A stretch of DNA of 36,180 nt from positions 1 to 36,180 of the forward strand of contig LRSL01000093.1 of the NCBI GenBank assembly GCA_001563335.1. Reading direction: 5' to 3'. Position numbers and translations under genes: made by a program. Under the pieces are notes generated by a model. It was not told the origin of the DNA. It searched no databases and saw nothing but the letters and a program-made list of their open reading frames with translations. The stretch comes from Candidatus Thorarchaeota archaeon SMTZ1-45. Its GTDB lineage: Archaea; Asgardarchaeota; Thorarchaeia; Thorarchaeales; Thorarchaeaceae. Positions 22,270-27,278 of the stretch are shown piece by piece (the stretch's first letter is position 1; every line of letters begins with the position of its first letter).

Positions 22270-23415
22270 CTATCTGTTGGCTATTTTGTTGATAGCATCT
22301 ACAATCAAGTTCAATTTCTTTTCACTGTCCACATGGATTGATATACCATTTCCTTCTTTAGCTATTGCTTCCATGATATCTGTTGCAGATTCTTTACCTA
22401 CTGAGACACTTAGTATTTTGACAGATTTACCTTCAAGATTTGTTCTAGTGATTTTAACAGGATTTTGACCTGTAGAATATACTCCACTTGAAAAAAAGAT
22501 AACTATAGTTGGTAGATCATTGATCTCATGCAATGTTTGAGCTCTATCTAGTCCAAACTTCAGAGCAGCTCCGGGATTAGAAGGTCTGGTTGATAGTGAA
22601 GAGCTTGAAGTATCAACCCATTTTCTGAATGCTTCAATGAGTGATGCGGAGCATAGTGGAGTAATTTCTTGTTCTTCGCCAGTTTGAGAGTTGAAAGTGG
22701 GAAAGGGAAGTACTTCATCAGAATAAACAATTCCAGCGAATTGAGAATTACTACTATATCCACGAAAATTAGATTGAAAAATATCAAGAAGTTGGAGGAT
22801 GGCTTTATGTCGTGAAATGTAATTCTCTCTAACAGCTGTATCATCAATCGAAACATCAACAATATGTGTGGCAGCAGCTACTTCTATGATGATGAATATA
22901 TTACTCTGTTGCAACTCTTCAGCTCCAAGGTGAATCTTGAGAAGACTATTCCACTTGATTCTAGCAGCTTTAATTTTAGACTCAGTTGGACTAAGATGCC
23001 TGACTACAAAGCTTACTCCCAAATTAGTGAGAGTAAATTCTTGTCCGATAGTAACTACGAGTCCTTCAAAATATTCCTTGAAGTCATCAATTCTCTTTGA
23101 AATCGCTTGAGCCATTATATGATTCTGAAGGGCTCTATTTGAAATAACATCGAAATGAATTTCAGTACAGATAGGGAGGTTGTCATGAAGAGGATTGAGG
23201 CGGATTTCCTCCTCACCATCACAATCAAGCATATCATAGATACGAGCGTCAAGTATAATGATCCCTTCAGGAACCTTTTCTGAGCATTTGACGTCTGCAT
23301 AGATCGAAGAAAATCTAGAAATTATCTCACATGTTTGAAAGGATGAAGATAATGCGTTGGTTGATACAAAACAAAGACCCTGTTGATCTCGGCCTCGTTT
23401 TGCTAGTAATTTCAA
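22270..23415 (-). CDS. Cdc48-N-like domain plus vWA domain with degenerate MIDAS
   Basis: VPEGIIILDARIYDMLDCD, FEGLVVTIGQEF, SFVVRHLSP; vWA IIIEVAAAT, ISRHKAI, SNPGAAL, FFSSG, SVSVG; TTG 23415 after GGAGG (track start 23490). Confidence 0.8.
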   Translation of the reverse strand: MKLLAKRGRDQQGLCFVSTNALSSSFQTCEIISRFSSIYADVKCSEKVPEGIIILDARIYDMLDCDGEEEIRLNPLHDNLPICTEIHFDVISNRALQNHIMAQAISKRIDDFKEYFEGLVVTIGQEFTLTNLGVSFVVRHLSPTESKIKAARIKWNSLLKIHLGAEELQQSNIFIIIEVAAATHIVDVSIDDTAVRENYISRHKAILQLLDIFQSNFRGYSSNSQFAGIVYSDEVLPFPTFNSQTGEEQEITPLCSASLIEAFRKWVDTSSSSLSTRPSNPGAALKFGLDRAQTLHEINDLPTIVIFFSSGVYSTGQNPVKITRTNLEGKSVKILSVSVGKESATDIMEAIAKEGNGISIHVDSEKKLNLIVDAINKIANR

Positions 23416-23428
23416 TAAAGCTCCTCCA

Positions 23429-24571
23429 TTAGTAAATGCGGGTGTTATAGATCTCTGTGGCAACCGAGCGAGACCCATAGAAAACTTCAACTCGAAGACT
23501 CGCTTTTCCTTTTGTTTCAGTCATCGGAACAAATTTCAGTTCAAGCTTCTTGTCAGATCTTGGACTAATATCGTGATGCTCATTGGTCACCTCAGATACA
23601 CCATCTGCAGTTACTAGAGATGCAATCACTCGAATTCCGATAACTGTAGGACTTGGATTCGTCACTCTCAAACTATAGTTGAATGCTTTACCAGCAACAA
23701 TATTGTTAGGAACTTCTCCCAATACGACCTTCAAACCCATTTGCGAGGCAGACAAGGGTCTTCCCTTTGGCCAACGATTTATTCGTCCCAACTCAAGAAG
23801 ACGTGACAAGGAGGTTTTTAGTTCTCTCAACTCAAGATTCAATGTTGATGCTGCCTCACCCATATCGAATGTTCCATCATTTGCTTCGTAGTATGTTAGG
23901 ACTTTTCTATCCGCTTCGATTAAATCACTAACACCCTCAAGAATCTGCAAGATTGCTCCTGGTAGTTCATGAGCCTCGAGAAGAGAGTAGTATTTTCCAC
24001 CATCGACAGAAGCTGCTATTTTTCTAAATGATTCTTCAACTAGTGGATTGCAACCACAAACAAAGATGAAGACTGTGCTACCAAAATCAGCCCTTAGTTT
24101 TTTGACTTCGTCAATTGGATCAAGACCTCTGGGGCAACCATCTGGAAAATAATCATCCCCGATACTGTTGTATAATTTGCCATGTGGTGGTGCATCACCA
24201 ACAAGAAGTAATACTTTGTATGCATTGCGTTCCCACGTAAGTTTTGTTCGAGCATCAAATAGACCATCAGCTACAGCTTCAGGAGTATCACCACCTTCAG
24301 ATGGTCTTAACTCAGAGATCAGTTTGTGTACTCGCCTAATTTTTTCCGTAAAATCAAACACACGTGTAATATATGTTCTATCTTGTGGTGGATGATCACG
24401 ATATGATACAATACCAAACCGTATCTCCAACCCTTCAGTCCGAGCAGTAATATGGTTTACAATCTCAAATAAGCTGTCTTTGACAGCAGTGATATCATCC
24501 TTCATTGAACCAGTTGTGTCAACTACAAATGCGACGTCGAGTTTGGTGGAGGCCAGCCCAATCCACTCCAA
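23429..24571 (-). CDS. vWA (VwkA/alpha-kinase-associated type) plus wHTH plus Ig-like domain
   Basis: DVAFVVDTTGSM, YRDHPPQD, GGDTPEAV, GDAPPHG; wHTH MGEAASTLNLELRELKTSLSRLLELGRI; Ig-like VPNNIVAGKAFNYSLRVTN. Confidence 0.88.
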   Translation of the reverse strand: MEWIGLASTKLDVAFVVDTTGSMKDDITAVKDSLFEIVNHITARTEGLEIRFGIVSYRDHPPQDRTYITRVFDFTEKIRRVHKLISELRPSEGGDTPEAVADGLFDARTKLTWERNAYKVLLLVGDAPPHGKLYNSIGDDYFPDGCPRGLDPIDEVKKLRADFGSTVFIFVCGCNPLVEESFRKIAASVDGGKYYSLLEAHELPGAILQILEGVSDLIEADRKVLTYYEANDGTFDMGEAASTLNLELRELKTSLSRLLELGRINRWPKGRPLSASQMGLKVVLGEVPNNIVAGKAFNYSLRVTNPSPTVIGIRVIASLVTADGVSEVTNEHHDISPRSDKKLELKFVPMTETKGKASLRVEVFYGSRSVATEIYNTRIY

Positions 24572-24654: not shown

Positions 24655-25044
24655 ATGACCGATCTGAACGATACCGATATTCAGTTAGAATTCGTTTTCG
24701 AAGGAAACCTCATTCTGAAAGGCATCATAAATAGAATATACGCTCCATTGATCGTAGAAGAGATAAAGTCCAGGCTCCCCTTTGAAGGCAGAACTGCTCT
24801 CATGCGAGGAGAAATGAAAATCACATTGGGCATTTCAAAAGGTAATGCAAAACCAACAAATGAGGTTAAGAAAGCAGATATAGCATACCAACCTCTTGGC
24901 GACTCTTTGGACATCTATCTGAGTGATAAACAAACCTTCAGTCAAGTCAACGTAATTGGGAGAATAATATCGGATGAATCAGATCTTGATGCATTGACTC
25001 AAGTACGTCGAGGAAGTTTGGTCACTATACGATTAGCTAAATGA
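24655..25044 (+). CDS. Cyclophilin-like fold protein (TM1367/DUF369-like)
   Basis: APLIVEEIKSRLPFEG, VKKADIAYQPLGDSLDIYL, VNVIGRI. Confidence 0.8.
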   Translation: MTDLNDTDIQLEFVFEGNLILKGIINRIYAPLIVEEIKSRLPFEGRTALMRGEMKITLGISKGNAKPTNEVKKADIAYQPLGDSLDIYLSDKQTFSQVNVIGRIISDESDLDALTQVRRGSLVTIRLAK

Positions 25045-25050
25045 GATTTT

Positions 25051-25602
25051 TCAAAGGCGTTGAAGTTTTGTTATGAGAGCCTTTTTCTCATCAACCTCAA
25101 CTTCTGAAGGATCAACTACCATACCAGCTTCATGAGTTTCAATCCTTACTTCGACACCGGAGTGTTTTACACTTTTAATTCCATTACTAGAGAGTGCTCT
25201 AACACGAAGCTGTGTTGTATTGAATTCTGTCTTGTCTGATGTTTCAACTGCAACGGTTTCTCTGCGAAGTTTAATCTTTGAGATTCGAACTTGTTCTTTG
25301 AGCTCAGCTACTTGAACCTGAAGTTCCTTTCTTTGGCTGCTTTCTTGCTCTAGCTGTGTCTTCAATTCTAAATGAGCTTCACGAGGAACATAATCCTTAG
25401 TCTTGTCAATCCATTTGACAATAGTTCCATCAAATTTGCGAGTTGTGCTAACTTGATTTAGAGCTTTCAAAACAGCAATGATATCGTACACACGACGCTT
25501 TGGGGTATTCAAACGTTCAGCCAGAATATCGCTTCTGATTCCTGATTCCCCACATTCTTTCAGTACTCTGACTGATTCTTTGGCTAGGTCAACTAGTTTC
25601 AA
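25051..25602 (-). CDS. E2F/DP-like winged-helix transcription factor with coiled coil
   Basis: LAERLNTPKRRVYDIIAVLKAL...VKWID matches the E2F/DP signature RRxYD..NVL...I.W; followed by a heptad coiled coil and a beta-rich segment. Confidence 0.85.
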   Translation of the reverse strand: MKLVDLAKESVRVLKECGESGIRSDILAERLNTPKRRVYDIIAVLKALNQVSTTRKFDGTIVKWIDKTKDYVPREAHLELKTQLEQESSQRKELQVQVAELKEQVRISKIKLRRETVAVETSDKTEFNTTQLRVRALSSNGIKSVKHSGVEVRIETHEAGMVVDPSEVEVDEKKALITKLQRL

Positions 25603-25631
25603 CTATGCACCCCACTTGAATTCCGGCGGCC

Positions 25632-25645
25632 TGCTCAATTGAGCA
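25632..25645. promoter_or_regulatory. Perfect 14-bp palindrome TGCTCAATTGAGCA
   Basis: About 30 bp upstream of the E2F/DP-like start; self-complementary. Confidence 0.5.
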
Positions 25646-25946
25646 CACTTCCATCATACATGTAAAGCCCCGTATATATGGGTTTGTAATTTTCCCATTA
25701 TACGAATCTGTTGCGATTTATCGAACGTATTACTCACATACTACATTAAAAAGAATCTAGTAAAACCCATCTTAGTATTGTTTCGAAAAATGTGAGACTA
25801 CATTATTCGAAATAGTCTCCAAAATTTCGTAGGAGATTTTCCAAACTTGAGTGTCTATAACACATTTGGCTAGACCAGACATTTTTTAACTTGGCAAAAA
25901 GGTTCGAAGAAGCATTGACCACCCAAGACTCGGAGTGGAGCATAAG

Positions 25947-27278
25947 ATGAGTAAGAAGAAAGTAATTATCATGGGAGCAGCGGGTCGCGATTTTCATAAT
26001 TTCAATGTCTTCTTCAGAGATAATGAAGACTACGAGGTTGTTGCGTTCACTGCTGAGCAGATTCCAGGAATTGGTGACAGAATATACCCTCCAGAGCTCT
26101 CGGGACCACTCTATCCTAATGGAATCAAGATCTATCCAGAGGAGCACCTTCCTGAACTCATCAAGGAGTATGATGTTGAACAATGTATATTGGCTTACTC
26201 AGACCTACCACATGAGGTTGTAGGCCACAAAATTGCATGGGTGAATAGCCTTGGTCCTGATATGCGATTGATGGGACCAAGTACTACTATGATAAAAAGC
26301 AAGAAGCCTGTAATTGCAATATGTGCTGTCCGGACGGGATGTGGGAAGAGTCAGACTTCGAGACGCGTGAACCAGATTCTGGTGGACATGGGGCTTAAAC
26401 CTGTCAATATTCGACATCCGATGCCATATGACCCGGACCTTACGACACAGATTGCACAACGCTATGCAAATCTTGAGGATATGGATAAGTATCGTTGCAC
26501 AATTGAAGAACGTGAAGAATATGAACCTATGATAAAGATTGGAGTCATTCTTTATGCTGGTGTAGACTATGGTAAAATACTTGAACAAGCTGAAGCTGAA
26601 GCTGATGTGATCACATGGGATGGAGGTAACAACGACTTCCCATTCTATAAACCAGACCTTCTAATTGTTCTAACTGATCCTCATAGACCCAGCCATGAGA
26701 TCACCTACTACCCAGGTGAAACAAACCTCCGAATGGCTGACGTAGTCGTAATAAACAAGATCGATACTGCAGATTACGAGGATATCGAGGAGGTCAGAGA
26801 AAATATAATGATTGTCAACCCCAATGCAATGATTGTTGATGCAGCCTCTCCACTCACAATTGATGATATTGAAAAGATCCGAGGAAAACGGGTTATTGTG
26901 GTAGAGGATGGTCCAACTGTCACTCATGGTGATATGCCCTATGGTGCTGGATATATTGCGGCTAGGAAGGCAGGTGCAGTCATTGTAGATCCTAGACCAT
27001 TTGCCATTGGAAGCATTGAGGATACTTTTGAGAAATATTCACATCTAGAGGATGTTTTACCCGCGATGGGTTATGGTAAGAAGCAGATGGAGGAGCTCCA
27101 ACATACCATCAATAAGTCAGATGCTGAAGCAATCGTTATTGGTACTCCAATAGACCTCAATCGTGTTATTAAGATTGACAAACCAAATGTCAGAGTACGA
27201 TATGATCTTCAAGAGATCGGCAGGCCAAATCTTGAGGATGTCCTATCCGAGTTCGTTAAGAAACATGGACTAAAGTAG
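25947..27278 (+). CDS. COG2403 predicted GTPase / cyclic 2,3-diphosphoglycerate synthetase-like protein
   Basis: MGAAGRDFHNFN, P-loop AVRTGCGKSQT, RHPMPY, TIEEREEYEP, WDGGNND, NKID, VEDGPT. Confidence 0.92.
   Translation: MSKKKVIIMGAAGRDFHNFNVFFRDNEDYEVVAFTAEQIPGIGDRIYPPELSGPLYPNGIKIYPEEHLPELIKEYDVEQCILAYSDLPHEVVGHKIAWVNSLGPDMRLMGPSTTMIKSKKPVIAICAVRTGCGKSQTSRRVNQILVDMGLKPVNIRHPMPYDPDLTTQIAQRYANLEDMDKYRCTIEEREEYEPMIKIGVILYAGVDYGKILEQAEAEADVITWDGGNNDFPFYKPDLLIVLTDPHRPSHEITYYPGETNLRMADVVVINKIDTADYEDIEEVRENIMIVNPNAMIVDAASPLTIDDIEKIRGKRVIVVEDGPTVTHGDMPYGAGYIAARKAGAVIVDPRPFAIGSIEDTFEKYSHLEDVLPAMGYGKKQMEELQHTINKSDAEAIVIGTPIDLNRVIKIDKPNVRVRYDLQEIGRPNLEDVLSEFVKKHGLK

Follow-up and report, generated by a model that had tools for sequence, protein, structure and literature searches.

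An E2F/DP-type winged-helix protein, probably homodimeric, encoded in a Thorarchaeota genome

An E2F/DP-like gene in Candidatus Thorarchaeota archaeon SMTZ1-45

A stretch of 36,180 nucleotides from the Asgard archaeon Candidatus Thorarchaeota archaeon SMTZ1-45 (contig LRSL01000093.1 of GenBank assembly GCA_001563335.1, positions 1 to 36,180), hereafter called the window, carries on its minus strand, at 25051..25602, an open reading frame (ORF) of 183 codons plus a stop, starting with TTG. The product of the gene (P0001) is probably a small transcription regulator that binds DNA, belongs to the E2F/DP family and would act as a homodimer. Membership in the family is argued by a match to a curated Pfam model, by PDB matches which, coiled-coil chains aside, are to E2F and DP proteins only, and by a profile alignment to eukaryotic E2Fs obtained with hhalign. 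In eukaryotes, E2F/DP proteins drive the G1/S programme. An earlier, sequence-only reading of the window had quoted several peptide strings as E2F/DP-like, leaving the strand unstated. All are found within the translation of this single ORF: KLVDLAKESVRVLKE spans residues 2–16, LAERLNTPKRRVYDIIAVL residues 27–45, VKWID residues 62–66, LRVRA residues 131–135, and VEVRIETH residues 151–158.

The ORF is a real gene, beyond chance, because it has homologues, differs from other loci mainly by synonymous changes, and is preceded by a conserved Shine-Dalgarno-like hexamer. From 276 candidates, 184 database homologues were retained at E ≤ 0.001. Among the 120 matches listed of these 184, identity to the protein ranges from 62 to 91%, the named sources are Thorarchaeota, Promethearchaeota, Lokiarchaeota or 'Asgard group', and 54 sequences measure exactly 183 amino acids (aa). 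The nearest related loci (92–84% protein identity) reside in metagenome-assembled genomes labelled Candidatus Thorarchaeota. One of the related loci (L004) differs from this gene at 116 nucleotides, 90 of them in third codon positions; of the changed codons, 87 are synonymous and 15 non-synonymous. The same trend was observed in eight further loci. The gene is under purifying selection.

The winged helix and the assignment to the E2F/DP family

The N-terminal 64 residues (25411..25602, minus strand) are an E2F_TDP winged helix, featuring the RRxYD recognition motif and the wing tryptophan. In the AlphaFold2 model, the domain is made by three helices (residues 3–20, 24–31 and 35–47) followed by two wing strands (residues 51–56 and 59–64), with predicted local distance difference test (pLDDT) values of 86–93. 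A scan with the Pfam E2F_TDP hidden Markov model, which the sequence-only reading had proposed as a check, gave a match of PF02319 to residues 10–64 (34.1 bits, E = 2.3e-8), above the curated gathering cut-off of 25.7 bits. The six-frame search of the genome placed the same match at 25411–25581, with 35.6 bits. Relatives were collected in an alignment (A2) of 54 sequences, none of which is eukaryotic, and E2F_TDP matches all 54 (best E 2e-10). The only other winged-helix DNA-binding Pfam family matching the protein at E ≤ 10 is KIN17 WH-like, which is weak (E = 0.079); neither TrmB (PF01978) nor a MarR model matches it at that threshold.

Searches against solved structures point to the same family. 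With the single sequence, the best solved relative is E2F8 (4YO2; E = 3.1e-4). With the A2 profile, 24 PDB matches were obtained at E ≤ 10. They include E2F8 (3.6e-12), E2F4 (1CF7_A; 4.2e-7) and DP-2 (1CF7_B; 0.0094), the remaining 21 being of coiled-coil type with E ≥ 0.11, and no TrmB or MarR chain is found among them. By hhalign, the A2 profile was aligned to 32 diverse eukaryotic E2Fs with a probability of 98.4 (E = 7.6e-15) over residues 2–112, with 19% identity over 108 aligned columns. The 32 E2Fs were gathered via a eukaryotic E2F fragment, P0157, which this protein alone had recovered from 1.84 billion representative sequences (E = 5.3e-4). The sequence-only reading had named a better match to TrmB, or to another archaeal winged helix-turn-helix, as the outcome that would speak against it; at the sequence level, no such match was found for this protein.

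The motif RRVYD (residues 36–40; 25483..25497, minus strand) lies within the recognition helix. RRxYD contacts DNA bases in E2F/DP proteins. In the 54 sequences R36, R37 and D40 are invariant, and at least 90% of the members retain Y39, P34 and the wing residue W64. In the A2 profile matches, residues 36–40 are aligned to RRIYD of E2F8 and E2F4, and to RRVYD of DP-2; W64 is aligned with the tryptophan of the E2F 'IxW' motif by hhalign, and in the alignment to E2F8 as well. The substitution of alanine for the asparagine of NVL, pointed out in the sequence-only reading, is seen here as RRVYDIIAVL versus RRIYDITNVL in E2F. The Pfam, PDB-profile and hhalign results agree in identifying a winged helix of E2F/DP type with RRxYD and the wing tryptophan, as had been proposed from the letters.

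Long helix and oligomeric state

The full-length AlphaFold2 model, obtained with 54 sequences, has a mean pLDDT of 85.8. Beyond the wing, residues 74–115 (25258..25383, minus strand) form a long helix, modelled with pLDDT up to 97 and predicted to pair as a parallel, in-register coiled coil. A heptad coiled coil had been read here in the sequence, with a length of about 35 aa. The coiled coil is present in the model, and its helix is longer, measuring 42 residues. Residues in a and d positions are L80, L84, L94, V98, L101, V105 and L112. The coiled coil follows the wing directly, as it does in E2F: besides the AlphaFold2 helix, the hhalign alignment to E2Fs extends, with no shift of register, from the winged helix into the E2F coiled coil, as far as residue 112. 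Since coiled-coil columns carry little information, this collinearity denotes equal spacing, not homology of the helices.

Some relatives are shorter. In P0135, P0139, P0147 and P0152 (about 120–135 aa) the winged helix is joined straight to the beta-rich tail, and the ORFs of 119–144 aa found in genome families f9 and f10 are of this short type.

Two copies of residues 66–183 were modelled together. The interface score ipSAE was 0.49 in each of 3 runs, versus 0.00 in the best-scoring of 3 controls; at least 93% of the contacts are common to the runs, and the pLDDT of the partner is at least 72. Of proteins solved as pairs, 20 of 30 reach the mark used to call a dimer; of those solved as single chains, 1 of 23 does. 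The predicted zipper is parallel and in register, and features the contacts 77:77, 80:80, 84:84, 91:91, 94:94, 98:98 and 101:101. The interface comprises residues 69–115 and 123–166, and includes contacts of residue 133 with residue 153 of the other copy. The sequence-only reading had favoured a homodimer. The two-copy model, which passes the mark, lends weight to this idea, and the predicted homodimer fits the copy number of the gene, because a single E2F_TDP match was found in the window's genome and in 130 of the 139 positive genomes described below. With moderate confidence, resting on these models, the protein may be regarded as homodimerising via a parallel coiled coil and an intertwined beta interface.

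The C-terminal tail

The C-terminal domain (residues 123–183; 25054..25236, minus strand) is predicted to provide a second dimer interface. The beta-rich character ascribed to it from the letters is borne out by AlphaFold2, which gives four strands (residues 133–136, 142–147, 152–156 and 161–164), followed by a helix (residues 172–182). A separate model of residues 72–183, built with 38 sequences, has a mean pLDDT of 85.5; F126, V144, G159 and P164 are invariant in these sequences.

In E2F/DP proteins the place of the tail is taken by the marked box, covered by the Pfam families E2F_CC-MB (PF16421) and DP (PF08781). Neither name occurs among the 25 families listed (of 49) for the 54 relatives. 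In the window's genome, PF16421 has no match at E ≤ 0.1, and PF08781 has a single match of 16.7 bits, on another contig and interrupted by an internal stop. When a global alignment of the tail to the E2F marked box is forced, the two are collinear, hairpin on hairpin, LRVRA..G being paired with 'IAIKAPxGT', and EVRIE..G..VV with 'YQIxLxS..IxVY'; this alignment has no statistical weight. The marked-box profile used in these comparisons was made of E2F marked boxes only, with no DP sequences.

The model of residues 72–183 was compared by Foldseek with 350,542 PDB chains. Of the 23 matches at E ≤ 10, none reached E ≤ 0.001. The chain ranked first is 2aze_B, E2F1 in the Rb-C/E2F1-DP1 complex (E = 1.4, probability 0.28, template modelling (TM) scores 0.37/0.39); the second is 5tuv_A, from E2F5-DP1-p107 (E = 2.7), and the sixth 2aze_A, DP1 (E = 5.3). 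Matches to 2aze and 5tuv have TM scores of at most 0.39, with root-mean-square deviations (rmsd) of 7.7–15 Å. The test is handicapped, as a monomer model is compared with chains cut from an intertwined heterodimer. It is suggestive, at the level of models and below significance, that the nearest solved architecture of helix plus tail is the E2F/DP coiled-coil/marked-box chain. A search of the ESM Atlas with residues 66–183 gave no usable match.

Comparison with known systems

The layout can be set against that of typical E2Fs (E2F1–6) and DP, as seen in 1CF7, 2AZE and 5TUV. Shared traits are the winged helix with RRxYD and the wing tryptophan, a coiled coil which starts few residues past the wing in matching register, and next a beta-rich domain, here predicted to join in dimerisation. 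In the 2AZE complex, the marked box of E2F-DP reportedly forms an intermolecular beta interface (sandwich). Differences concern size (183 aa versus about 220–570 aa in the eukaryotic E2Fs compared), the lack of a transactivation or pocket-protein-binding tail found in typical E2Fs, the alanine replacing the asparagine of NVL, and the tail, in which no similarity to marked-box sequences could be detected. Moreover, the Asgard protein is predicted to form a homodimer of one gene product, in contrast to the E2F-DP heterodimer. No match to RB_A was found in the window's genome (3.54 Mb in 119 contigs, 87.7% complete), a search which was equally silent in all controls and so shows little.

E2F7 and E2F8 act without DP, and E2F8 (4YO2) is the best match of the Asgard protein among solved structures. 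E2F8 is not known to have a coiled-coil/marked-box module. It features two tandem winged helices per chain, corresponding to two matched stretches, and the Asgard protein only one; by analogy, the latter would reach a two-fold contact with DNA by dimerising, unlike E2F8.

Proteins of the TrmB family and BusR (7WJG, 7B5T) resemble the Asgard protein in having a winged helix, a long dimerising helix and a C-terminal domain. BusR is aligned with the whole model over about 215 columns, but with TM scores of 0.25–0.27 and rmsd of 15–17 Å, and chains of BusR or TrmB are missing from the 23 Foldseek matches of the helix plus tail model. No ligand-binding domain family was detected by Pfam in the E2F-like protein.

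Distribution and copy number

Of 400 genomes examined in the phylum, 139 have an E2F_TDP match (above the cut-off in 136 of them); none of 14 control genomes has one. Most positive genomes (130/139) have one match, the remaining 9 have two. The gene is common in the family to which the window belongs (75 of 85 genomes), and absent or rare in several other large families (0/31, 0/22, 0/14, and 3/135 with weak scores).

A phmmer search over the 1.84 billion representatives retrieved 36 proteins at E ≤ 0.001. About 16 are full-length (160–185 aa, 26–60% identity) and keep the layout unchanged; a few others, of about 130 aa, have the tail and no long helix. In a scan of species genomes, 94 stretches were found to encode relatives, and 80 of these 94 were retained as loci. 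Most carry the Thorarchaeota label (49/80); others are labelled Promethearchaeota, Hermod-, Hel-, Baldr-, Odin- or Hodarchaeota, or '(uncultured) archaeon'. No longer (fused) homologue was found among proteins of 451–2000 aa, which is weak evidence against fusions; the interval of 322–450 aa was not covered with the archaeal query.

Two E2F_TDP genes were found in genomes G006, G047, G050–G052, G298–G300 and G309. The two products encoded in such a genome could pair with each other, by analogy with E2F and DP, as a heterodimer. The Baldrarchaeota loci L076 and L080 are from the same assembly. Locus L074, which lies on a 15-kb contig, encodes a relative 37% identical and close to Helarchaeota-type loci; the contig was assigned, probably by mis-binning, to a bin labelled as the bacterium Candidatus Deferrimicrobium.

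Neighbouring genes

A cyclophilin-like gene (PF04126; Pfam E = 2.5e-11) lies at 24655..25044 on the plus strand, in convergent orientation, with 6 nt between its end and that of the E2F-like ORF. A relative of this gene was found in 72 of the 80 loci, including those with Helarchaeota, Baldrarchaeota, Odinarchaeota and Hodarchaeota labels (for example L071:4550-4864, L076:4638-5009, L078:3500-3871 and L081:4967-5278). The conservation of a convergent pair across distant lineages is unusual. Co-dependence of the two genes was considered, and is ruled out by the presence of the cyclophilin-like gene in families lacking the E2F-like one: the former resides in 276 of 400 genomes versus 139 for E2F_TDP, and in one family in 105 of 135 genomes versus 3. 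The two genes are mutually independent, because the cyclophilin-like gene occurs in many genomes without the E2F-like gene.

At the other side, a divergent gene (25935-27278, plus strand) encodes a P-loop/CobW-like protein of 447 aa, with a weak match of CobW/HypB type. The protein is very conserved, and has no family name; it is about 80% identical in loci (L036, L042, L068, L069) where the E2F-like protein is 48–60% identical. Two vWA-domain proteins of 406 and 380 aa are encoded at 22270-24571 on the minus strand, by ORFs which overlap by about 60 nt and adjoin the cyclophilin-like gene. The 380-aa protein recurs in 60 of the 80 related loci. Other neighbours encode a membrane protein and a CoA-ligase-like protein. 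No functional hint was obtained from the neighbouring genes.

The upstream region

About 80 nt upstream of the ORF (25603..25680, minus strand), a putative promoter region and leader, the latter of roughly 45 nt, are conserved across Thorarchaeota loci. All elements described here are on the minus strand. The TATA-like sequence CATATATAC (25672-25680) is found about 70–78 nt before the start codon. It is followed by the inverted repeat TGCTC-N4-GAGCA (25632-25645), the arms of which vary and yet stay complementary in some loci (L025, L039), and by the GC block GGCCGCCGG (25623-25631), conserved in Thorarchaeota loci. Of the upstream blocks, the Shine-Dalgarno-like hexamer GGGGTG (25608-25613), 6–11 nt before the TTG, shows the highest conservation when 34 loci are aligned. 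The start codon is TTG or GTG in nearly all Thorarchaeota loci.

RNAalifold found no consensus RNA structure in the 34 leaders. A leader hairpin had a common position in 6 of 10 single-sequence folds, with z values (−0.72 to +1.31) indistinguishable from those of shuffled sequences. The upstream block GCCGCCGG was considered as a binding site or regulon motif, and rejected: it occurs 10 times in the genome versus 27.7 expected on the basis of composition. Similarly, GCCGCCGGA was found 5 times versus 8.0 expected, with no enrichment. The conserved GC block was dropped as a candidate binding site because it is unenriched genome-wide.

Discussion

The proposed mode of action is drawn from the models and from E2F-DP. 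Two copies of the protein would pair via the parallel coiled coil and the intertwined beta interface, and the pairing would bring their two identical winged helices next to each other, an arrangement like that of the E2F-DP heterodimer. Because two identical winged helices would be so held, the homodimer may recognise a two-fold symmetric, or nearly symmetric, DNA site, probably containing GC, which the two RRxYD helices would read to regulate transcription.

Several observations weigh against a homodimeric E2F/DP regulator with the complete layout. At the level of the head, 17 of the 54 relatives also match Pfam TrmB (best E 5.2e-6), and 15 match HTH_11, both more weakly than E2F_TDP. When the whole model is compared with the PDB by Foldseek, generic winged helices (Z-alpha, ArsR, MarR and others) are retrieved, none at E ≤ 0.001, and no E2F/DP DNA-binding chain is found among the matches listed; for this reason, structure alone does not discriminate between families. 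As to dimerisation, the score is a model confidence, not a measurement, and up to 19 of 100 single chains may reach the dimer mark; moreover, the counts hold only roughly for a custom alignment such as the one used here, which lies outside the calibration of the mark. The long helix is missing from some relatives, about 130 aa in length, in which the tail is kept; the family can therefore do without the coiled coil, and the winged helix is more constantly accompanied by the tail. Concerning the tail, E2F_CC-MB and DP give no match to the protein at E ≤ 10. By hhalign, residues 113–183 are aligned to the E2F marked box over 10 columns only, with a probability of 0.2 (E = 0.26); a score at least as high as the 7.2 observed is obtained in 100 of 150 column shuffles, and with the profile reversed the score is 9.3. 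Lastly, the upstream block that might have marked a regulon shows no enrichment in the genome.

The marked box named in the sequence-only reading consequently receives no Pfam or profile-profile signal, and its Foldseek top ranks are below significance. In the same way, the full eukaryote-like layout claimed there holds for winged helix and coiled coil, the identity of the tail as a marked box being unproven. Order and predicted dimerisation role of the post-wing module match those of the eukaryotic coiled-coil/marked-box module, which is suggestive as regards the layout.

A rival interpretation accepts a winged helix of E2F/DP type, and views helix and tail as a lineage-specific module for dimerisation or sensing, the resemblance to eukaryotic proteins being convergent. 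Many winged-helix regulators of prokaryotes, TrmB and BusR among them, likewise feature a coiled coil and a C-terminal domain. This interpretation is a serious one, to which slightly less than an even chance is given. It draws on the silence of the marked-box models and profiles reported above, on the poor superposition of the 2aze and 5tuv chains (E = 1.4–5.3), and on the presence of BusR in the whole-model Foldseek list (E = 6.5e-3, TM 0.27). On the other hand, chains of E2F1, E2F5 and DP1 rank 1, 2 and 6 in a search of 350,542 PDB chains from which BusR and TrmB did not emerge with helix and tail, the predicted dimer has an intermolecular beta interface, and the forced alignment is collinear, if devoid of statistics. 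That the whole protein is an ordinary TrmB/MarR-like archaeal regulator, whose E2F_TDP match is due to chance or to a convergent RRxYD, is exceedingly improbable, and has been largely refuted. The Pfam matches of relatives (TrmB in 17, HTH_11 in 15, Rrf2 in 6, MarR_2 in 2 of the 54), the generic winged helices retrieved with the full model, and the name 'CTP-dependent riboflavin kinase' given to relatives by some sources would fit it; however, TrmB matches among relatives always accompany E2F_TDP, which is found in all 54, and the protein of the window exceeds the E2F_TDP cut-off with no TrmB or MarR match at E ≤ 10. Profile matches to E2F8, E2F4 and DP-2, the hhalign result (7.6e-15), and the retrieval of a eukaryotic E2F fragment by this protein alone argue in the same direction.

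Origin is a separate issue. Had the gene been gained by Asgard archaea from a eukaryote via horizontal transfer, it would be silent on the origin of E2F/DP. A patchy distribution (139/400 genomes, with families at 0/31, 0/22, 0/14 and 3/135) is what such a transfer could leave, but the labels of the loci that carry the gene span Thor-, Hermod-, Hel-, Baldr-, Odin- and Hodarchaeota, the relatives are deeply diverged (26–60% identity), the convergent neighbour is shared by 72 of 80 loci, and the 183-aa layout is simpler than that of any E2F/DP, with 19% identity to eukaryotic E2Fs. Transfer is regarded as very unlikely. A wider proposal, that the family is the surviving prokaryotic core of E2F/DP, is advanced tentatively, and is on balance doubtful; the sequence-only reading had likewise surmised a pre-duplication homologue. 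According to it, winged helix, coiled coil and marked box would be united in one homodimer, and a duplication along the lineage from Asgard archaea to eukaryotes would have given E2F and DP; the marked box, to which the C-termini of Rb-family proteins came to dock, would have begun as a homodimerisation domain predating Rb, cyclins and CDKs, and the few Asgard genomes with two paralogues would be an independent replay of the duplication.

Asgard E2F homologues are already in print. The review 'The Archaeal Cell Cycle' (PMC7617429, 2024) states that some Asgard genomes have E2F homologues, with reference to Spang 2015, Zaremba-Niedzwiedzka 2017, Liu 2021 and Eme 2023, and takes them to hint at a deeply conserved cell-cycle transcription. 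In the legend of its Figure 1c, half-filled circles denote homologues in specific subbranches, a category into which the patchy occurrence found here (139/400 genomes) would fit. The E2F homologues of the review are the same kind of protein as that described here, and their domain layout, oligomeric state, structure and distribution are not given in its available text. PF02319 is, moreover, already annotated in database records of the relatives. As far as these sources go, the existence of the family is already known, because it is stated in the review and annotated in the records, and the caution about novelty in the sequence-only reading was well placed. No published description of the coiled coil, tail, predicted homodimer or distribution of the Asgard E2F-like protein was found in the literature searched, and the supplements of the surveys cited may list the family.

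To the question of how E2F/DP originated, the window adds a concrete and tractable protein of 183 aa, single-copy and widespread in several Asgard lineages. The evidence on the layout makes the question testable in terms of dimer state, DNA site and tail fold, with one recombinant protein. If the protein is not a homodimer with a defined site and a marked-box fold, it would be one more archaeal winged-helix regulator, whose DNA-reading head eukaryotes inherited. If it is, the heterodimeric E2F-DP core would be derivable from a homodimeric archaeal regulator.

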